Source: a virus (lineage: Duplodnaviria > Heunggongvirae > Uroviricota > Caudoviricetes > Herelleviridae). Taken from it: a stretch of 64,000 nucleotides of DNA. Below are positions 2,119-37,252 of the stretch, in pieces. The DNA lies in IMG/VR virus record IMGVR_UViG_3300020128_000040. One strand, written 5' to 3'. A program made the position numbers and the translations under genes. A model generated the notes under the pieces. It saw nothing but the letters and a program-made list of their open reading frames with translations, had not been told where the DNA came from and did not search any database. The first letter of the stretch is position 1. Each line of letters begins with the position of its first letter.

Positions 2119-4068
2119 TCAGGCCTGCGCCGGAACGGCTTCCTCCTCGTCGAGGGGGGTGGCCGCGGCGGCGGGGGCGGCGAGCAGCGGCTGCGCCGAG
2201 GGCGCCATCAGGGCGTCCTCGATCAGGCGGCGGGCCTCGTTCTCAGCGGGGCGGGCCCCCAGCTGGCGCTGGAAGGTCGCACGCACCGAGGCCTCCACGA
2301 TGTCGTCCGGCAGGGCCGGCGGCAGCACGGTGGCGTTGCGGGGCATCGTCGAGACGATGCGCTCGCGCTCGCGGGAGTACGCCGAGCGGAGGATCTCCGC
2401 GTAGACGGACTCGTCGATCGGGCGGAACGCCAGCAGGTGCATGAAGCGCCCCAGGAACTCCGGGTCGAAGGCCTGCTCCAGCGCCGAGGTCACCTGCTGC
2501 CGGTTGAACCGCGGGGGCTCACTGCCACCGGCGGAGAACCCCGCCGCCGGCTTGCCCCCGAGGGCCTCGCGGCCCGCGTTGGTGGTGGCGATGACGACGG
2601 CCTTGGAGAAGTCGACCACCTTGCCCGAGGCCATCCGCATCCAGCCCTCGTCGAGGGCGGTCAGCAGCAGCCGGTGGATGGTGCGGTCGGCCTTCTCGAT
2701 CTCGTCCAGGAGGATCACCCGGTACGGGTTGGACTCCAGGGTGTCGAACGGCAGCTCCTTGTTCGAGTCGCTGCCCACGTAGCCCGGCCCGGCCCCGATG
2801 AGCTTCGAGGCGTCGTGCGAGGTGTGGTACTCGCCCATGTTCAGCATGATCGGCTCCTGGCCCGTCAGGGCCCGGGCGATCACCTTCACGGCCTCGGTCT
2901 TGCCGACCCCGGAGGGACCGGCGAACATCCAGGTCATCGGGCGGCGGCGCGGGAACACCTCGAGGGCGTCACGGCGCATGGCGACCATGACCTCCTCCAG
3001 CGCCTCGTCCTGGCCCTTGATGCACAGCAGCGCGTCGCGGGCGGCGGCCTCGTCGAACGGGACCTTCGTGGGGATGCCCGTGGCCAGGCGCAGGGCGACG
3101 GCGTGGGCCTTCTCCTTCGTCAGGGGCACGGGGGTCATGGCCTTGAGCTGGGCGGCGTAGACCTGGTCACCGGCGGCCTCTGCCTCGGCGATCAGCCGGC
3201 GGTGGGTCACCACTGTGTCCCCCATGGCCCGGTCCATCAGGGTCAGGGCGCTGTCGGGGCGGTGCTCGGCGGCCCGGGAGTTCTCGTCCGCGATCCGGGC
3301 GATCTCCACCAGGGTGTGGTCGGCGACCGCCACAGCGTGGCTGTAGTGGGCGTGCAGCGAGGCCGAGGCCGAGCGCAGCACCTCCACCGTCTGCTCCCGG
3401 CTCAGCTCGTCCACGACCACGCGCGAGAACCGGCGCGCGAACGCCGGGTCGTCGTCGAGGTCGCGGGCCTCCTGGGCGGTGGTCGCGCCGATGAGGCGCA
3501 TGTCGCCGCGGGCCAGGGCCGGCTTGAGGATCTGGGCGATCTTGCGGTAGGTCTCGGAGTTCGACTGCAGCAGGTGGATCTCGTCGATGAACAGGACCGC
3601 GTTGTTCTTGCGGTCGGTGGCGAAGTCCACCACCGCCGCGACGCGGGACTCCAGCTCGCCCACGATGCCCGTCCCGGCCACGAGGCTGGACAGCGGCAGC
3701 TCCCAGACGGTGCTCTTGGCCATGGTCGGGGGCACCAGCGGCGAGCCGGTGGCGATGAGCCGGGCGATCTCCTCGACGATGCGGGTCTTGCCCACGCCGG
3801 CCGGGCCCACCAGCAGCGGGTTCGGCTTCGACTTGGAGATCAGCACCGACATGGTCAGCTGGATGAGCTGGTCGCGGAACATCGCGGGGTCGGCCGCCTT
3901 GAAGCGGTCGTTGTAGTCGATCATGATGTCGGTGACATCGTTGACCTGCTGGGCGGCTCCGCCCATCGACGGCAGCGGCGGCAGGCCCGGGCCACCAGGG
4001 CCGGCAGGCCCGCCGGGGCCACCAGGGCCGAGGTCGTCGTCGTCTGTAAAGTTGTGGAACGAGCTCAT
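2119..4068 (-). CDS. ClpA/ClpB-type double AAA+ ATPase lacking the usual N-domain
   Basis: NPLLVGPAGVGKT / LFIDEIH / GATT / FARRF, then GPSGVGKTE / KLIGAGPGYVG / LLDEIEKA / VDFSKAVVIATTN / PEFLGRF / GARP. Start MSSFHNF at 4068 follows a GAGAGGAG RBS. Confidence 0.92.
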   Translation of the reverse strand: MSSFHNFTDDDDLGPGGPGGPAGPGGPGLPPLPSMGGAAQQVNDVTDIMIDYNDRFKAADPAMFRDQLIQLTMSVLISKSKPNPLLVGPAGVGKTRIVEEIARLIATGSPLVPPTMAKSTVWELPLSSLVAGTGIVGELESRVAAVVDFATDRKNNAVLFIDEIHLLQSNSETYRKIAQILKPALARGDMRLIGATTAQEARDLDDDPAFARRFSRVVVDELSREQTVEVLRSASASLHAHYSHAVAVADHTLVEIARIADENSRAAEHRPDSALTLMDRAMGDTVVTHRRLIAEAEAAGDQVYAAQLKAMTPVPLTKEKAHAVALRLATGIPTKVPFDEAAARDALLCIKGQDEALEEVMVAMRRDALEVFPRRRPMTWMFAGPSGVGKTEAVKVIARALTGQEPIMLNMGEYHTSHDASKLIGAGPGYVGSDSNKELPFDTLESNPYRVILLDEIEKADRTIHRLLLTALDEGWMRMASGKVVDFSKAVVIATTNAGREALGGKPAAGFSAGGSEPPRFNRQQVTSALEQAFDPEFLGRFMHLLAFRPIDESVYAEILRSAYSRERERIVSTMPRNATVLPPALPDDIVEASVRATFQRQLGARPAENEARRLIEDALMAPSAQPLLAAPAAAATPLDEEEAVPAQA

Positions 4069-13748: not shown

Positions 13749-16700
13749 CTACGCGGCGCCGTTCATCCAGTTCTTCTCATAGGTGTCGGCGAGTAGCTCG
13801 ACGTACACCCCGAGGTCCAGGCAGCCGAGGAGGTCGCGCAGGCGCGCCTCCCCCATGCAGTGCAGGTCCTCGTTCACGACCAGCGCCGACCACGAGGGGT
13901 CGATGCTGTTGATGCGGCGCACCGCGACGTCCTGGTCCACGGGCAGGAGCGTGAAGCCCTCGTCCGAGGCCTGCGAGACACGGCGGGTGAAGCCGTTCGC
14001 CTCCAGGATCTGCATCGCCACCGGGTCGTCGGAGACGGCCTGCAGGCCGTTCTTCTGCCGGTTCAGGCGCGTGGCCGGGTTGATGACCCACGCCCCGGCA
14101 GAGCGCAGCGACACCGCCCCCGGCTTGCCGGGGTGCACGTAGAACACGCGGTTGTGGTGCTGCAGCGGCCGGGCGTTCGTGATGCCCTCGTCGTCCGCCC
14201 CCGCCTGGGGGACGGGGTCAGAGGCGAACGGGATCGTGATCTTGCCGTTCGACGACGCGATCATGTTCTGGAACAGGCGCGCGGCCAGCACGCCGTCCTC
14301 CAGGTCCCGGGCCTCGAGCATCAGCCGCAGGGCCAGCTCGCGGTCCAGTGGCTCCTCCAGGGAGACCGGCCCCTTGCGCCCCTTGGGGGTGTAGCCCCCG
14401 GCGATGTAGCGCAGGTACCGGGCCAGCGCCCAGTCCAGCACCGCGGGGTGCGCCAGCGCCTTGTCGGGGCGGGGCCCCTCGTAGCACGCGAGCGTGCCGC
14501 CTGAGGCGTCGACGATCCTCGCCTCCCACGGCTCCTGGCCGTCGGCCGGCGGGCGCATCTCCAGCCGGTTGTTGGAGTCCTTGGACACGATGACCAGGGG
14601 CTCCGGCTCGATCTCGACGTTGATCAGCGCCTGTTGCTCGGCGAGCACGCGGTTGTTGGTCTCCTCGTCCAGGACGGAGTAGAGGCCGTCGGTGTTCGTG
14701 GAGATGATCCGCCCACCCGCGAGGGTCTGGGCCTGCCCGATGCGCCAGGAGAACAGCTGCCCGATGATCCGCATCGAGATGATCTGGTTGTTGACGCGGA
14801 TCGGCGAGTTGCCGAACGTCGTGTCACCAGCGCCCGAGGCGGAGTTCAGGATCAGCTTGGTCCCGTTGCGGAGCACCTTGAGGCGCTCGACCTCGTCGCG
14901 CGAGAGCGACGGGTCCTTCATCATGACGCCGTACCTGTCCTTGTCGGCCAGGATCTTGGCGTAGCGGTCCTCCCCGAGGTCGGGGTTGTAGAACGCGCTC
15001 ATGTTGCGCAGCATGTTCGGGTAGTACGAGGTGAAGTCCTCGTGGATCGCAGCGCCCGCGGAGGTGTGGGTGTACTTCGCCTTTAGCTTGTTCGACCTGT
15101 CGGGGGACGGCTCAAACAGCTCGGGCCGCTTGGGGCCCGGCTTCCAGCCCACGCCCGGGAACCGCGACTCGACCTCGGCCACGTCGGCCGGGTCGGGGTC
15201 GGGGCCCAGGGCCGTGATGGCCTCCGAGCGCTCCTTGAGCGCTTTGATGGTGCTCTTGGAGGTCAGCACGTCCTTGTAGGGAACGATGGCGGTCGAGCCG
15301 TCGGGCATCGGTACCTCCATCTCCTTGGCCAGGCGGATCGTGAGCGGGTCGGGCGACACGGCCCTCACCGCCTCGATGAACGCCTGCCACTGGTGCCACT
15401 CGGCCGAGTCGGCCTCGTAGGCGGCCACATCCGCCTCAGCGCCGTGGATGCCCCCGGTCGAGAACGTGGCGAAGCACGTGCTTGGGGAGCCGTCGGCGTT
15501 GAAGTAGGGGATGTTGTTCGGCCGCTTGGGCACGTCCTTGAGGACGTGCGGCGGGTGCTCCGCCAGGCTGTAGGTGTCCGCGTACTCCTGCGAGTCGTTG
15601 AAGTTCAGACCCTCGATCGACCTGTAGTACTGGTAGACCTCGTCGAACTGGGCCCGGGCCGAGGGGTCGGCCACGTGCTCGTAGAAGAAGTCGCGGCAGT
15701 CCTCCAGGACGTTGCGGCGCTCCACGCCGCGCTCGGCGGCCACCTGCTCGGAGGGGTAGAGGAACGACACCGCGGGGATGTCGGTCAGCTTCCCGTAGGG
15801 GCTGAGGATCTTGCCCACGAACTTCGCGGACGTCGAGTCCGGCGCCAAGCGGTCGCGGCGCACGGCCTGCGGGCGCACGTCGGGGCGGTGGGTCCCGCGC
15901 ACCGGCTGGTACACGGTCTCCGGGTACTCGTCCAGCAGGCCCTTCTTCAGGTCGAAGCCCGACGCGTAGGTCGGGTGCTGGGCCAGCTGGGCCAGGCCTA
16001 CGACGTCAGAGACGTTGTAGGCCAGCAGCTCGTAGAGGTCCTGCGCCGAGGCGATCCGCGCGTTGTGCGAGCCGAGGCGGTCCGACTCCAGGATCTGGCG
16101 GCCCTGGCCGCCCAGGAGGCGCTTGAGGCCGATGCGGCGCTGCACCTCGTTGAGCATGGCGATGTCGATGTGGCGTCCCGAGTGCAGGAACGCCTGGCGG
16201 ATCTTGTTCGCCGAGGAGTTCCAGCCCTTCGACCCGGCGACGGAGCCGTCGGTCAGGTAGCGGGGCATGTACTCCTTGAAGGCCGGGGAGAACAGCTGGT
16301 CGTTGTGCCGGCGCATGCCGGCGGCGGTCACCGGCCGGAATAACGCGGGGGCGTCCTGGGGGCGGCCGTCATGGACGGCCCTGGCCAGGTCGACGAAGGC
16401 CTCCATGAAGTACACCGCGAGCATCGTGGTGTCGTAGTTGTAGGAGTTGTACCCGGCCAGGTAGGGGTGCTGGCCCAGCGGGTCGTACCCGGGGTCGGTG
16501 TCGCACACCGGGCGCAGCCACGGGCCGTAGCTGGAGGGCGAGCCCGGGTCGTTGACCGAGTCGGCGTCCGACAGGCCGAAGACCTGGGCCAGGCGCTGGT
16601 TACCGCGCCACTCGCGCAGGTCGTAGGCGACCATGTGCCGCGGGGCGCCGGGGCGGTCCTGGTAGGACGGGTTGCGCTCGGCCACCACGTCCGCCAGCAC

Positions 16701-16868
16701 GGCGATGTCCACCTCGATCGAGGGGTCGTCCAGGAGGTAGAAGACCTCCAGCACGTTGGTGCGCGGGTTGTAGGAGCACAGCGTGAAGGCGTTCTGCAGG
16801 CTCTCGATGTCGTAGTAGGTGAACAGCGCGTTGCGGCTGGTCACCGGGGTCTTCCCTGGGCTCGTCAC
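13749..16868 (-). CDS. family B DNA polymerase with 3'-5' exonuclease (NTDG-type)
   Basis: ExoI YDIES, ExoII GYNSYNYD, ExoIII YNVSD; TGGIHG; motif A DFTSYYP; motif B KLILNSASG; motif C STNTDG. GTG start at 16868 has an AGAGGAG RBS and a GTGA overlap with the upstream stop. Confidence 0.88.
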   Translation of the reverse strand: MTSPGKTPVTSRNALFTYYDIESLQNAFTLCSYNPRTNVLEVFYLLDDPSIEVDIAVLADVVAERNPSYQDRPGAPRHMVAYDLREWRGNQRLAQVFGLSDADSVNDPGSPSSYGPWLRPVCDTDPGYDPLGQHPYLAGYNSYNYDTTMLAVYFMEAFVDLARAVHDGRPQDAPALFRPVTAAGMRRHNDQLFSPAFKEYMPRYLTDGSVAGSKGWNSSANKIRQAFLHSGRHIDIAMLNEVQRRIGLKRLLGGQGRQILESDRLGSHNARIASAQDLYELLAYNVSDVVGLAQLAQHPTYASGFDLKKGLLDEYPETVYQPVRGTHRPDVRPQAVRRDRLAPDSTSAKFVGKILSPYGKLTDIPAVSFLYPSEQVAAERGVERRNVLEDCRDFFYEHVADPSARAQFDEVYQYYRSIEGLNFNDSQEYADTYSLAEHPPHVLKDVPKRPNNIPYFNADGSPSTCFATFSTGGIHGAEADVAAYEADSAEWHQWQAFIEAVRAVSPDPLTIRLAKEMEVPMPDGSTAIVPYKDVLTSKSTIKALKERSEAITALGPDPDPADVAEVESRFPGVGWKPGPKRPELFEPSPDRSNKLKAKYTHTSAGAAIHEDFTSYYPNMLRNMSAFYNPDLGEDRYAKILADKDRYGVMMKDPSLSRDEVERLKVLRNGTKLILNSASGAGDTTFGNSPIRVNNQIISMRIIGQLFSWRIGQAQTLAGGRIISTNTDGLYSVLDEETNNRVLAEQQALINVEIEPEPLVIVSKDSNNRLEMRPPADGQEPWEARIVDASGGTLACYEGPRPDKALAHPAVLDWALARYLRYIAGGYTPKGRKGPVSLEEPLDRELALRLMLEARDLEDGVLAARLFQNMIASSNGKITIPFASDPVPQAGADDEGITNARPLQHHNRVFYVHPGKPGAVSLRSAGAWVINPATRLNRQKNGLQAVSDDPVAMQILEANGFTRRVSQASDEGFTLLPVDQDVAVRRINSIDPSWSALVVNEDLHCMGEARLRDLLGCLDLGVYVELLADTYEKNWMNGAA

Positions 16869-17164
16869 GGGGAGCTCCTCTCTTCGGGGGCCCTCGTCCA
16901 GGGGCCGAACAATGCTGTCACGGGCGCCCATGAGGCGCCCCTCGTCTCGCCGGAGGCGTCGGTCCAGGAGCCGTCGGCCCCCAGGACCCAGGGGTCGCCC
17001 TCGCGGTCGAGCCACACCCCCGGCTCGGAGGGGACCCCGCCGTCGGCGACCCGCTGGCGCAGGGACTCGTCCAGCCGGTCGCGGCCGGGGCCGTCGAGGC
17101 CCTCGGGGTAGGCCTCCTCGGGCAGGAGCCTGGCGGCCGCCGGGCCTGTGTCTGTCTGGGCCAT
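16865..17164 (-). CDS. hypothetical protein, coupled to the polymerase
   Basis: AAGGAGG RBS, 99 aa, Trp-rich (WLDREGDPWVLGADGSW), GTGA overlap with the polymerase start. Confidence 0.7.
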   Translation of the reverse strand: MAQTDTGPAAARLLPEEAYPEGLDGPGRDRLDESLRQRVADGGVPSEPGVWLDREGDPWVLGADGSWTDASGETRGASWAPVTALFGPWTRAPEERSSP

Positions 17165-17181: not shown

Positions 17182-18876
17182 TCATGCGAACGGGTTCTCC
17201 CACGGCTTGGGCGGCTCGGGCTGCACCAGCGCCGCCACGGCGGCGGCAGGGGCGTGCTGCTGGGGCTGGGGGGCCCCGACGTAGCGCTGCAGCCCCCGGT
17301 ACATGCTCGCCGTCGCCGGCTGGCACAGCTTCGCCGGGTCGTTGCCCGTGTAGGAGGGCGACTGCCACGACTTCAGGTCGTAGGCCATGATGAGCAGCTC
17401 CGGGGCGTCCATCTTCGAGCCGGTCCGCACCTGGGCGGAGCGGTCGGCGCAGTACCACCCCGAGGAGGGGTCGACCACGGACACGAGGTCCTTGATGAAC
17501 ACGTTGCGCCCCACCGGGGAGCCCGAGGGGTTGGACCTGGCGAACCAGGACTTGTACAGGTCGTACAGGAACGCGAAAGGGAGCAGGTCCCACACGAAGT
17601 CCTCGTGGAGCTCCTCCCAGAACGCGCGGATCGGGTCGTTGAACTCCTTGTACTCGGCCAGCACGCGCCCGACGGCGTCGGGCTCGGACAGCGAGTAGTA
17701 GTCCATGTGCAGGACGCGCTTGAGCACGTAGCGCAGGACATCGGGGTGCGAGACGTACTCGTCCTTGATGTAGCGGCGCTCGTGGCCGGTGAAGCACTTC
17801 TCGAACGGCACGAACAGCTGCCGGCGGTAGAAGCTCTCGGAGCGGTCCTTGATCCGCGGGAACTCGTTCAGGCACTGGACCATGAAGCCCCAGAACTGGT
17901 ACGAGATCGGCGTCTTGTACTTGCGGTTGATCATCAGCACGTCGTTCGTGATGATGGCCTTGAGGTTGGCGGCCTTGTCGATGAACAGGCCGACGTCGTT
18001 TTCGTCCACGATGATCGCCGAGGCGCGGGTCAGGGGCTCCAGCATGAAGTCCTTGCCCATGTCCGCCAGCGGCAGCGAGGTGTGGGCCCCGGGGCCGCAC
18101 AGGTTGCGCATCAGCGCGACCAGGGTCCCCTTGCCGTTGTTGCCCCGCTCGGAGTAGAACCACGCCGACTTGTTCCAGCGCACGTGGGGGCGGATCACCG
18201 CGCCCACGATCTGCCAGAGCAGCTCGACGACCTCGGGGTCGTCGGACAGCGTCCCCATCCACTCCTCGACCTCCCAGGTGTCGCCGTCCGGCGTGTCGAA
18301 CACCGGGGAGACGGCGGCAGGGTCGTAGTCGACCGAGCTCTTGGACAGGAAGACGAGGTCCGGGGAGAACGGGAGCAGCTTCTTGGCCGCGTAGTCGAAG
18401 ACCCCGTTGCCCACGGCGATCAGGTCGCGGTCGGCGCAGCGGTGGACCCGGGGCGCCTGCTCGCGCAGCACGGCGAAGACCTCCTTGGCCCCGTTGATCG
18501 TCAGCTCACGGTTGTAGGCGCGGGCGATCGAGCGGATCTCCTCCTCGGCCGTCAGGTAGACGCCCTGGGAGGGGCCGGAGGCCGAGTAGACGGCCAGCAG
18601 GTCGTAGTCGGGGTCGGTGTTCTTGCCCGAGGGCGCGATCTTCACCACCCGGTGCAGGTGCACCAGGACCTGGGCCACCTGGGAGAAGGTGAGGGTCTGC
18701 AGCAGCGTGATGCGGTGCTTCGGGTCCCTGCCGGCGTTCTCGATCACGAACTCGGCGTTCGTCAGATCGAGCAGCTCGTTCTCGACCTGCTTGGCCGGCG
18801 GCGGGGACGAGGGGTCGAGCCCCTCGAGGTAGGAGGTTGTCACCTCCTGCACTATCTGGTTCTGTGGCTTTGCCAT
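17182..18876 (-). CDS. SF3 (D5/P4-type) replicative helicase
   Basis: D5_N-like DLIAVGNGVFD...FSPDLVFLSK; Walker A ERGNNGKGT; Walker B IIVDEND; motif C CLNEFP; FYRRQLFVPF. Confidence 0.88.
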   Translation of the reverse strand: MAKPQNQIVQEVTTSYLEGLDPSSPPPAKQVENELLDLTNAEFVIENAGRDPKHRITLLQTLTFSQVAQVLVHLHRVVKIAPSGKNTDPDYDLLAVYSASGPSQGVYLTAEEEIRSIARAYNRELTINGAKEVFAVLREQAPRVHRCADRDLIAVGNGVFDYAAKKLLPFSPDLVFLSKSSVDYDPAAVSPVFDTPDGDTWEVEEWMGTLSDDPEVVELLWQIVGAVIRPHVRWNKSAWFYSERGNNGKGTLVALMRNLCGPGAHTSLPLADMGKDFMLEPLTRASAIIVDENDVGLFIDKAANLKAIITNDVLMINRKYKTPISYQFWGFMVQCLNEFPRIKDRSESFYRRQLFVPFEKCFTGHERRYIKDEYVSHPDVLRYVLKRVLHMDYYSLSEPDAVGRVLAEYKEFNDPIRAFWEELHEDFVWDLLPFAFLYDLYKSWFARSNPSGSPVGRNVFIKDLVSVVDPSSGWYCADRSAQVRTGSKMDAPELLIMAYDLKSWQSPSYTGNDPAKLCQPATASMYRGLQRYVGAPQPQQHAPAAAVAALVQPEPPKPWENPFA

Positions 18877-19179
18877 TTCATGCCTTTCGGGTGCCCTTGT
18901 GCCGCAGCAGCGGCGGGCGTGTGTCGTGGGAGTGCCCTAGTCCGCTGGCGAAGCAGAAGAATCGTCGCATACGATCCTACCTCATCAGACGACGGGACGG
19001 GGGGCCTGCCCTCTTTCCGGGAGGCGTGGTCGGCCTCGCAGCACCGGGGGAGTACGAGGCATCGCCAGTACGACCCCCGGTGCGCGCTCCGCGCGCATCG
19101 TCCAGGAAGGCCTCCGGCGCGGGAGGGACCAGGGCCTCCTAGCAGCAGGAGGGGCACCGCCCCTCCAGTCGTCAGCACA

Positions 19180-19710
19180 GGCGAATGGCCTGGTCAGAGT
19201 GGGAAGACGTGTGGCAGCCGGGCTGGCCGCTCGTGGAAAAGGGCTGATCAGAGGGGTGATCGTCCTCCCGTGTCGCGGTTGTCGCGCTTCTTGCCAAAAA
19301 AAGCGCGACACAAGAAACCCCTGGTCAGCGGCTGGAAACGACAAAGCTGTCACGGATCTCTTTTCTAAAAGTGTGACAGTATAAATACCTGGTCACAGAT
19401 ATGAAACACGTCCTGTGTCGCGGTTGTCGCGGTTCTATACGACCTTTACATGCGTGCACGCATGCGCACACGCATACGATGAGTTTTACGAAAAAAAGCG
19501 AGACAACCGCGACAAACGCTGTTCTTGGTGTGCTGACCAGGGAAAAGGGGTGTCGCGCTTTTCCTCGGGCGATTTCGAGAAGTGTGACGCTGTTTCTGGA
19601 ATGTGCTCCTGACCAGGGATTCCCCTCCTGGGGGCTGTCGCGGTTCTCAGACCCCAAAAGCGCGACACGATTTCAGTGAAGATACGTCTGACCAGGGATT
19701 CCCTCTGCAT
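19180..19710. repeat. mirror-symmetric repeat array, candidate replication origin
   Basis: TGTCGCGGTTGTCGC at 19271 and 19416, inverted at 19498-19514; CCTGGTCA copies on the left and CTGACCAGGG at 19533/19609/19688 on the right; A-tracts. Non-coding and immediately upstream of the SF3 helicase. Confidence 0.7.
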
Positions 19711-19822
19711 GAGTCCGCCGGACCCCTCGACCACGTGCCGGTGCCCGGCGGCGAAGCGAAGGCCCCGGTCCCAGCGACAGGGTCGCCAGGGCCGGGGCCA
19801 TCACGGTCAGGGAGCGGGCCTC

Positions 19823-20497
19823 TCAGCCAGCGGCGGGGCACTGCGCCCAGATGCCGCGGGAGGCGGCCTGGGCCTCGGACTGCTCGGCGGCGTACTCGTC
19901 GCCGTCGGCGTGCGCCAGGCCCTCGGACACGAGGCGGGCGCCCAGGGGCGACCCGTCCACGGCCAGGGCCATGTAGCGGGGGCCGTCGGGTTCGATGGCG
20001 GCGTCCACCTCGGCGGCGGTGGCCTCGAAGACGTAGGTCGGCAGGACCTCCTCGCGCACCTGCGGGCCCCAGACCAGCCCGGCCTCCTGGCCGTGCAGCT
20101 GGTTGAGCAGCGCCACGGCGCCGTCGTAGGACGCCTCAGCGCCGCACTGGCCGGTCTCCGGCGCCTTGACGCCGGACACGCGGACGAGCCACGTGCGGTC
20201 GGAGCGCTCGTACGGCTCGGTCGAGCCGTCGGCCATCACGGCTTCCACGACCCGCAGGTCGAGGGCGTCACTCCAGCGCAGGTCCACCAGCGCGAGCCGG
20301 TAGGACACGGGCGCCTGCTCGGGCGCCTCGGCGCTCGGGGACGGTGACGGGGTCGCCATGACCTCCTGGGAGGCCTTGGTCGGGGCGGGGGTCGAGGCTG
20401 GCGCCTCGGGGGACCCCTGGCCCGCGCACCCGCTCAGGAGCACGGCTCCGACGGCTACTGCGGCCAGGGACTTGATGACGGTGTTCACAAGGGACAT
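19823..20497 (-). CDS. lipoprotein with thermonuclease (SNase)-like fold
   Basis: Lipobox LLSGC; VRVSGVKAPE..QCGAEA; LVSEGLA; EAQAASRGIWA. Confidence 0.7.
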   Translation of the reverse strand: MSLVNTVIKSLAAVAVGAVLLSGCAGQGSPEAPASTPAPTKASQEVMATPSPSPSAEAPEQAPVSYRLALVDLRWSDALDLRVVEAVMADGSTEPYERSDRTWLVRVSGVKAPETGQCGAEASYDGAVALLNQLHGQEAGLVWGPQVREEVLPTYVFEATAAEVDAAIEPDGPRYMALAVDGSPLGARLVSEGLAHADGDEYAAEQSEAQAASRGIWAQCPAAG

Positions 20498-36372: not shown

Positions 36373-36550
36373 TCATGACCCCTGGGGTCATGACCCCCCT
36401 CGGCTTGCCGTTGGGGGTCATGAGGCCGAATAGGTTACGCCTGGTGGGGGGCCATCCAGGGGTATGAGGGTGGACGCCGTAGGTGGCACCCCTCATGACC
36501 CCTGTCGCGAAGCGGGTCCCCACGACCGCAGGGAGGGGGTCATGACCCCC
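36373..36550. repeat. TCATGA-centred palindrome array (GGGGTCATGACCCC)
   Basis: Full or half copies at 36373, 36384, 36413, 36493 and 36535. Confidence 0.8.
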
Positions 36551-37252
36551 CTGTTGCGTGCTCGGCAGCAGCTGTGGGAGCGGCCCGCCGCGACCTCCTC
36601 CTGGAGCCTCGTCCTGCCGCTTGGCAGCCCCTGGCCCCGGCTATCAGCCGTGCTGCGCAGCTGCTCCCGGGACGTAGTCGCGGGGGCCCTCCTGGCTTGC
36701 TGCCACTGTGGCCACCACTGTGGCTCCGCGCCCGTTGCGGCCCCTGCCGCGGTCGTCCCCAGGGCCTGGTGGCAGCCTGTGGATAACTGCGCTCCGTCGC
36801 AGGGCTCCGCAGGCGTGCCGGACGTCGCTGATGGATGTAGCCACTGGCCCCTGCGAGCCCCGGCGGCTGTGCTTGTTCTGTCTCGGCCGGGCACCGGCCG
36901 GGCCGCCGCTGGGAACCAGCCAGTGCCACCGTTCAGGGTGGCGAAGGCCGGGCGCAGCCCTTCAGCCTTCCTGGTGAGCTCTTGCCGTACCTTCTTCGGG
37001 CATCGCCCGTTCGCAGGTCCTACCCGTCTGTGCGTCCGCGGCCTCGGACGCGGGCGCGTGGCTCGCTCTGTGGCCTCGGCACCCGCCACCCATACCGCTC
37101 GTTGCCGAAGGCGCCCTGTGTGATAGTCGCTGCTGCGCGAGCAGCGCCTGTGGGCAGTCTGCTGCTGTCACATGATGGCCCTGAAGCAGGGGGCGGGAAC
37201 CGCGCATGCCAATCAAGCCACCTCGTGGCCCGAAGGCCGGATCGTTGGACGG

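Follow-up and report, generated by a model that had tools for sequence, protein, structure and literature searches.

Among described replication systems, the SaPI elements offer the closest counterpart to the region analyzed here, positions 19180–19710 of a 64,000-nucleotide stretch (IMG/VR record IMGVR_UViG_3300020128_000040; hereafter the window), which lies beside a gene for an SF3 helicase of the D5/P4 type. The SaPI Rep proteins are self-loading initiator-helicases, and their origins comprise 6–12 short iterons and an AT-rich center with at least two opposed iterons per side (PMC9371898; bioRxiv 10.64898/2026.10.17.759575). These origins are situated immediately downstream of rep (PMC9371898). 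In PriRep5 of SaPI5, a C-terminal β-hairpin wing reads the bases of the 7-mer TGCAACC, and the flexible domains of the SaPI Reps can also reach inverted iterons (PMC9371898; bioRxiv 10.64898/2026.10.17.759575). As detailed below, the region in the window is probably a SaPI-Rep-type vegetative replication origin of a large conjugative element from a high-GC Gram-positive host, the element being proposed to be a plasmid or an integrated element; full-text literature searches retrieved no paper describing an origin for this element family.

The locus was in good agreement with the SaPI systems in having a homologous SF3 helicase (N-terminal tier, ATPase, C-terminal winged helix), a candidate origin that adjoins the helicase gene and carries about ten short iterons (7 nt, as is TGCAACC in SaPI5), an easily melted center with at least two opposed iterons per side and a mixture of direct and inverted copies, and iteron words and C-terminal wings that vary between elements. 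The two differ, however, in several points. The SaPIs are 15-kb phage satellites, whereas the present element would be a large conjugative plasmid or integrated element with a putative family-B polymerase. The array is located 300–800 bp upstream of the helicase gene, a downstream position being seen only in some Firmicutes relatives, and extends over ~500 bp as against ~300 bp. Furthermore, the helicase is without a fused primase, a second conserved motif (CTGACCWGG) stands at a fixed 9-nt offset from the iteron, and the spacer holds a sequence-conserved alternating purine/pyrimidine tract in place of plain AT-rich DNA.

More remote parallels are provided by phage P4 and by the small DNA tumor viruses. 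The alpha protein of P4 has a fused primase and depends on crr, a second site in cis that is located several kb away. The present locus shares with P4 a P4-family helicase (TIGR01613) whose origin-binding domain is C-terminal, as well as octamer-type iterons in both orientations with the origin near the gene, but, besides the missing primase fusion, no second, crr-like cluster of TGTCGCG or CTGACCWGGG was found in the 64-kb window. In SV40 and polyomavirus (large T antigen) and in papillomavirus (E1), inverted pairs of short recognition words bring two SF3 hexamers into a head-to-head position, the melting elements are an A/T tract plus an imperfect palindrome, and auxiliary sites for a second factor, e.g., the E2 sites, are present. 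Whereas the melting elements of those viruses lie outside the recognition words and an N-terminal origin-binding domain contacts the DNA, the candidate melting elements here lie between the iteron pairs and a C-terminal winged helix is predicted to bind; the fold match of the helicase to E1 was only distant (Z ~11).

The Bifidobacterium megaplasmid pMP7017 is likewise a large low-copy conjugative actinobacterial plasmid, in which tandem and inverted iterons flank an essential AT-rich region (PMC8313286). Its dedicated RepB initiator and 20-mer iterons, as against the SF3 helicase and 7-mers here, nevertheless constitute a different system, the words primase and helicase being absent from that text, and pMP7017 was thus rejected as a relative (PMC8313286). 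Classical iteron plasmids of the Rep_3/RepB type, having 17–22-bp iterons, differ from the present 7-mers with their 9-bp period, and the genes adjoining the latter are not dedicated rep genes.

Arrangement of the repeats beside the helicase gene

From the helicase start (18876) to the stop of the neighboring gene (19823), the gap measured 946 bp, and ORF inspection revealed no credible open reading frame (ORF) within it, in line with the non-coding gap of ~900 bp described by the initial annotation, all of whose listed motifs were recovered where it had placed them. The GC content was 44–59% at 19250–19700, as against about 72%, with values of 70–80% in the flanks. The features on which the argument rests are as follows.

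19416..19514, origin core: TGTCGCGgtTGTCGCG (19416–19431), a 67-nt spacer and CGAGACAacCGCGACA (19499–19514), the tandem iterons having a 9-bp period
19447..19478, perfect purine/pyrimidine alternation of 32 nt, central, containing the 16-bp palindrome CATGCGTGCACGCATG (19449–19464)
19491..19497, A7 run (T7 in the helicase direction), adjoining the helicase-distal tandem iterons and then followed by AAAACT
19351..19405, least stable duplex of the 64-kb window, a candidate unwinding element just outside the core on the helicase side
19405 to 19378, minus strand, promoter-like TTCATA-16-TATACT, overlapping the least stable duplex and directed at the helicase
19189–19196, 19320–19327 and 19388–19395, minus strand, three copies of motif A (TGACCAGG on the minus strand), each with TGT after 9 nt (A-N9-B)
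19533, 19609 and 19688 (span 19534..19696), plus strand, three copies of motif A (CTGACCAGGGA), spaced 76 and 79 bp
19271..19310, outer iterons of the helicase-proximal arm: TGTCGCGgtTGTCGCG (plus) and an inverted CGCGACA at 19304–19310
19551..19667, outer iterons of the distal arm: TGTCGCG at 19551 (plus), 19636 (plus) and 19661 (minus)
17182..18876, minus strand, SF3 (D5/P4-type) helicase gene, 564 amino acids, proposed self-loading initiator-helicase
17284..17586, minus strand, C-terminal winged-helix domain (residues ~431–531), the predicted wing hairpin W474–K488 being encoded at 17413–17457

In the core, two plus-strand iterons face two minus-strand iterons across the spacer, and the midpoint of these inverted tandem pairs lies at approximately 19465, so that the inverted, mirror-like architecture noted by the initial annotation was borne out. 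Compared with a strict signature of four identical 7-mers, the core of the window shows one mismatch. Within 19271–19667, ten strong copies of TGTCGCG or TGTCTCG and about three weak ones were counted; TGTCGCGGTTGTCGCG occurs at 19271 and again at 19416, and GCGAGACAACCGCGACA, a somewhat degenerate counterpart in inverted orientation, at 19498. A further A7 run is present at 19297–19303. Motif A, in the form CCTGGTCA, is read on the plus strand at 19189, 19320 and 19388 and on the minus strand at 19534, 19610 and 19689, giving three copies per side in opposite directions, the right-hand copies being those that extend to CTGACCAGGGA.

Both words were markedly concentrated at this site. The window contains 18 copies of CCTGGTCA, as against 3.1 expected from shuffles, six of which fall within 508 bp, and 18 copies of TGTCGCG, half of which (nine) fall within 397 bp; Poisson estimates of the clustering, with the rest of the window as background, were ~1e-9 and ~1e-17, respectively. 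Similarly, four of the five copies of the 10-mer CTGACCWGGG in the 64 kb belong to this region. In addition, the two motifs were found to be linked as a composite, CTGACCAGG-N9-TGT, in which the TGT begins an iteron. With no more than one mismatch, this arrangement was present at five of the six copies of motif A, and elsewhere in the window only one site, with one mismatch, was detected. The two protein-binding motifs proposed by the initial annotation stood as two classes of motif, and no further than that. A role of motif A as a −35 element was rejected, the spacing to every −10-like hexamer being unsuitable.

The nearest-neighbor free energy of the 19351–19405 duplex was −46.5 kcal/mol per 40 bp, as compared with a window mean of −64.3 (standard deviation 3.7), and the promoter-like TTCATA-16-TATACT was the sole site of its kind in the scanned interval 18700–20000. 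When treated as single-stranded DNA, the core folded better than its shuffles (z = −3.65), mainly because the inverted iteron arms pair with each other. Taken in the helicase direction, the elements of the spacer follow one another as the T7 run, AAAACT and the 32-nt purine/pyrimidine alternation.

The module and the helicase wing in relatives

By helicase homology, 82 loci were fetched. A Streptomyces plasmid of 639 kb and Gordonia pGKT2 each encode a helicase homologue at 54% identity, and in both the downstream genes specify a large hypothetical protein followed by a DEAD/DEAH (SNF2-type) helicase; in the Streptomyces plasmid, a VRR-NUC gene is annotated between these two. A one-genome-per-species scan gave 80 further loci at 47–68% identity, some in complete chromosomes and others on contigs of ~200 kb; the relatives are plasmids of 180–640 kb or are chromosomal. 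In the majority of the 82 loci, the same module adjoins the gene for the homologous helicase; the many genera and families concerned include Streptomyces, Arthrobacter, Promicromonospora, Kribbella, Actinomadura, Brevibacterium, Rothia, Leucobacter, Lachnospiraceae and Ruminococcus. About 50 loci of Actinobacteria showed, 600–900 bp upstream of the helicase, a GC dip accompanied by 7–11 copies of TGTACCACG, and TGACCWGG recurred at offsets of approximately −994 (plus), −910 (minus), −716 (plus) and −639 (plus), the last two being 77–78 bp apart; the strict 3 + 3 mirror layout of CTGACCAGGG is particular to the present element, most relatives showing the order + − + +. In the Firmicutes relatives L065, L073, L078 and L080, the array comes immediately after the helicase gene. 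The cluster thus tracks the helicase gene and not the position of a promoter. A lack of equivalent repeats upstream of homologous helicases, which the initial annotation had named as refuting the origin, was not observed: such repeats were encountered upstream in the actinobacterial relatives and just downstream in several Firmicutes relatives.

These loci share a common plan, in which a distal tandem iteron pair is followed by a spacer of 63–150 nt, holding an A/T run and a purine/pyrimidine tract, and then by a proximal inverted tandem pair, beyond which come A-N9-iteron composites, every one of them accompanied by an iteron in inverted orientation. The design [w-N2-w]...[rc w-N2-rc w] was recognized in most relatives. 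The word itself differs: TGTCGCG in the window is replaced by TGTACCA in further relatives and by variants in others, namely TGTAGCA (L028), TGTCTCA (L066), TGTACCC (L059), TGTCCCG (L058), CTACCAC (L049), TGTGGCA (L073 and L078), GTGTCAC (L065) and GTTAGAG (L080). What is kept across lineages is the CTGACCWGG motif and the central tract, while the 7-mer varies, and such a retained architecture with a changing iteron word is the pattern expected of initiator–iteron coevolution. The strict signature of four identical 7-mers in inverted tandem pairs gave no hit in 1.085 Mb of control replicons; 17 of the 80 loci contained it. Three copies of the composite CTGACCWGG-N9-TGT were found in the complete 639-kb plasmid, every one at the helicase-adjacent site, and 135 distinct sites in relatives gave the consensus CTGACCWGGg.AAAC..cTGTACCACG. 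The core of motif A, CCWGG, is a site of the Dcm/EcoRII type, and the W position is occupied by A at 55 and by T at 80 of the 135 sites, as expected if only CCWGG plus its flanks are read.

Conservation extended to the central tract. The pattern AACT..TATGCGTGTGCGCGTGCATGCGCGCATGT is common to the window, a Microbacterium element and a Clostridia metagenome-assembled genome (MAG; locus L049) despite their unrelated iterons, as is the extended pattern AACT..TA(T/C)GCGTGTGCGCGT.C..GC.CGCA.GT, and the T7-N-AAAACT arrangement was also seen in L049 and L077. The purine/pyrimidine tract itself is near-identical in the Microbacterium contig and L049, and shorter or less similar in L077, L016, L029 and L044. 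Among 53 cores, the longest alternating run had a median of 11; in random windows of the same size, the median was 7 and the 99th percentile was 14. The run measured 32 (window), 32 (L049), 26 (L016), 20 (L029) and 19 (L044).

The helicase contains the Pfam domains D5_N, DUF5906 and Pox_D5 and matches TIGR01613; a primase fused to it was not detected among these domains. The only solved relative found by sequence was PriRep5 of SaPI5 (7OLA), to which phmmer aligned residues 104–448 with an E value of 3.1e-46. An AlphaFold2 (AF2) model built on 42 homologues (pLDDT 89.5) matched PriRep5 with a Foldseek E value of 2.9e-31 and VIA Z scores of 40.8 and 40.1 (7ola_D and 7om0_D). The VIA alignment covers residues 24–504 of the model, including the C-terminal winged helix, residue 504 corresponding to residue 765 of 7om0_D, and pairs the model with the helicase portion of PriRep5 (chain residue 316 and beyond). 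As modeled, the helicase is a close structural homologue of PriRep5. The winged helix of the model consists of a strand (431–433), two helices (434–448 and 457–467) and a hairpin (474–475/483–484).

The predicted wing, W474–K488, reads WYCADRS-AQVR in the window. In TGTACCA elements of different genera it is almost always WHCPDKN-RKIR, and it departs from this form in every variant-iteron lineage. At a matched ATPase-core identity of 65–75%, wing identity was 0.71 between helicases with the same iteron (n = 193) and 0.46 between those with different iterons (n = 220), and in five variant lineages whose core is 70–75% identical to that of a TGTACCA helicase, the wing is only 28–60% identical. 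Because the compared pairs are not phylogenetically independent, which tempers the case for the proposed origin, this covariation was taken as supportive rather than conclusive. It would fit a C-terminal wing that reads the iteron word, and the choice of the helicase C-terminal domain as the candidate binder in the initial annotation is consistent with it.

Evaluation of the origin reading

The origin read into this gap by the initial annotation was thus supported by the comparison, namely by the module in relatives, the homology to PriRep5 and the wing–iteron covariation. From these data we infer iteron binding, melting, a double hexamer, autoregulation and bidirectional firing, which would proceed in the following manner. 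The adjacent SF3 helicase would serve as its own initiator, the hairpin of its C-terminal wing reading the 7-bp TGTCGCG. The two tandem iterons on each side of the 67-bp spacer, facing inward, would position two helicase hexamers, and the flanking direct and inverted iterons would be held by the remaining flexible C-terminal domains. The DNA would then open between or beside the hexamers, the candidate sites being the A7/T7 run, the alternating purine/pyrimidine tract and 19351–19405. The helicases would thread onto the single strands, whereupon the putative polymerase B of the element and the replication genes of the same operon would take over. Considering the promoter-like site within the array, iteron binding probably also autoregulates the helicase operon. 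In this scheme, CTGACCAGGG, 9 nt from the iteron, would be a second origin-specific site, probably bound by a conserved second factor or by a second surface of the helicase.

Further roles may be proposed for the two elements that are kept while the iteron changes. The 30–40-nt alternating tract, following the T-run and AAAACT and shared across phyla, could itself be where melting or priming occurs, and is proposed to be prone to a Z-DNA or cruciform transition under supercoiling. CTGACCWGG, with its CCWGG core, may be a site for a second factor or a methylation mark that licenses or times firing, although control of the origin by methylation via CCWGG is speculation. The conserved tract and the second motif go beyond what the SaPI model explains, and it is possible, albeit doubtful, that the tract as an iteron-independent initiation element and CTGACCWGG as a second site together define a new modular class of origin; if true, this class would serve a large undescribed family of self-replicating conjugative elements with a family-B polymerase. 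A defined origin candidate with its likely initiator renders this unmapped family of large Actinobacteria and Firmicutes elements testable, and offers a possible route to new vectors for hard-to-transform actinomycetes. It would also extend the self-loading SF3 helicase mechanism of the SaPIs to wider and more diverse replicons, and the natural series of iteron words and wing sequences provides material for decoding wing–DNA recognition.

Several results weigh against the proposed origin. Its support is comparative throughout the element family, and the upstream position of the array would also suit an operator array. No primase gene was confirmed among the ORFs tried nearby. The module was absent beside the helicase in the closest relatives (Microbacteriaceae: Leifsonia, Microbacterium and Plantibacter; 64–68% identity), and in pGKT2 no iteron array was seen within 7 kb of the helicase. 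In two complete relatives, pGKT2 (182 kb) and the 639-kb Streptomyces plasmid, the GC skew was uninformative and did not switch at the candidate site, the cumulative skew being noisy in the latter and rising monotonically around the whole pGKT2 circle with no turning point. The monotonic skew of pGKT2 would fit a strongly one-sided gene orientation or unidirectional replication. Lastly, a scan of a whole 200-kb Microbacterium contig located a clear-cut, origin-like core at 107,813–107,935, where CTGACCTGG and AGTACCGaaTGTACCG are followed by a 40-nt purine/pyrimidine tract and CGGTACAtCGGTTACA; this core lies directly upstream of a gene resembling only the helicase C-terminal domain (CTD), ~9 kb from the helicase. 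The module is therefore separable from the helicase gene, and the reader of the iterons may be a stand-alone protein in some elements.

Core and CTD-like gene together fall in G001:C8:107813-108794 (L131:7813-8794); the gene has a product of ~200 amino acids that aligns only to the C-terminal winged helix of the helicase, at 33% identity and with a shortened wing, and it may be a stand-alone origin-binding protein. The same contig (L126:4442-6510) and a Leifsonia contig each encode a second helicase paralogue (43–47% identity), which in Microbacterium has its own upstream TGTACCT core (TGTACCTgcTGTACCT ... AGGTCCAccAGGTACA), and thus one element may hold two origins of different specificity. 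Pattern searches of Microbacteriaceae genomes yielded no composite A-B site and tandem matches at control level only; one pattern match, G001:C6, was rejected as lying on an unrelated contig.

The alternative that survives best, although unlikely, is an origin whose iterons are read by a separate initiator, i.e., a stand-alone winged-helix protein, another protein of the element or host DnaA, which then recruits the helicase. The location of the module in the closest relatives beside a CTD-like-only gene speaks for it, as does the constancy of motif A against a variable helicase wing, from which at least one further binder is likely. It is also favored by a Lachnospiraceae MAG (L008), in which eight perfect DnaA boxes (TTATCCACA / TGTGGATAA) occupy a 350-bp AT-rich stretch (2700–3050), 450–800 bp upstream of the helicase; that element may use or sense host DnaA. 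The same locus, however, also possesses a separate inverted tandem core of the TGTGGC type (TGTGGCA-type words) 3.3 kb upstream, and its DnaA boxes may thus be a separate feature. Moreover, neither a CTD-only paralogue nor a second helicase was found in the 64-kb window, the wing–iteron covariation points at the helicase itself, and the PriRep5 precedent requires no other factor (PMC9371898).

It is quite unlikely that the array is solely a transcriptional control region, even though it stands upstream of a long co-directional operon and includes the promoter-like TTCATA-16-TATACT. Looping operators such as those of pLS20 do typically consist of multiple sites in both orientations, tens of bp apart, and would match this explanation. 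On the other hand, the array is found downstream of the helicase gene in several Firmicutes relatives, inverted tandem pairs around an easily melted and conserved spacer match SF3 origins and not known operators, the helicase has a C-terminal domain of the initiator type, and the least stable duplex of the window is located here. The roles of origin and operator are, in any case, compatible with each other.

Another cis site of a mobile element, whether an oriT, a partition centromere or a recombination site, is very improbable: conjugative elements do carry such sites, often as inverted or direct repeats in AT-rich DNA, but the adjoining genes include no relaxase, partition or recombinase gene, at least ten 7-mers of one class arranged as inverted tandem pairs would be unusual for an oriT, and the array accompanies the helicase gene across phyla. 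Finally, functionless chance repeats or the remnant of a decayed insertion, for which one might invoke the random recurrence of short GC-rich words and the approximately five further matches of a relaxed inverted-tandem search in the window, were effectively refuted by the comparative data, given the enrichment, the conservation of the architecture in dozens of genera of two phyla and the absence of the exact signature from the control sequence.

Flanking sequence and further repeat sites

The remainder of the gap and its far border comprise three features.

18877..19180, minus strand, GC-rich untranslated leader from the origin to the helicase start codon, GC 63–75%, without a credible ORF
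19758..19802, minus strand, GC-rich hairpin, an inverted repeat just past the stop of the upstream gene, terminator-like and without a T-run
19823..20497, minus strand, ORF of 224 amino acids with a lipoprotein-like signal (LSGC), forming the right border of the gap and reading toward it

The leader (300 bp) contains several short hairpins. In many relatives, a conserved GC-rich sequence, GAAGAACTCCNCCGAACCNCGACC, stands between the origin array and the helicase start, at −540 to −470 from the helicase match (L022:2960-3030, with the same offset in L011 and L007), and it was not seen in the leader of the window. An Rfam search of the region gave no match at gathering or permissive thresholds, with only a sub-threshold hit on the 19758..19802 hairpin, and a DNA similarity search of the gap against plasmids gave no match. 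The 224-amino-acid ORF belongs to no Pfam or PHROG family. This lipoprotein-like ORF and the helicase are the immediate neighbors of the gap, with RecJ beyond, and the genes nearby in the window include a putative family-B polymerase, an SNF2 helicase and RecJ. Downstream of the helicase, a protein of 1088 amino acids (13749–17015) showed no Pfam or NCBIfam match. A phage DNA-polymerase PHROG (E 1e-17) matched it solely at residues 647–803, a result suggestive of a highly diverged family-B polymerase.

Elsewhere in the window, a separate cluster of about seven GGGGTCATGAC-like words was observed at 36373–36950, and GGGGTCATCTGGTGGC is present eight times at 12.57 kb of the Microbacterium contig (L126:12567); together they represent a putative further conserved repeat site of the element family.

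When metagenomes were scanned for the TGTCGCG core, 17 contigs were returned, none of which carried this helicase. In two of them, the repeats lie in the 3′ end of Prim-Pol + DUF3987 genes, where they encode RDTRDT, and in one they lie inside a DUF3631 gene (cores at L143:3213-3322, L151:1569-1676 and L139:998-1103). These cores may be origins embedded in other primase-helicase genes.

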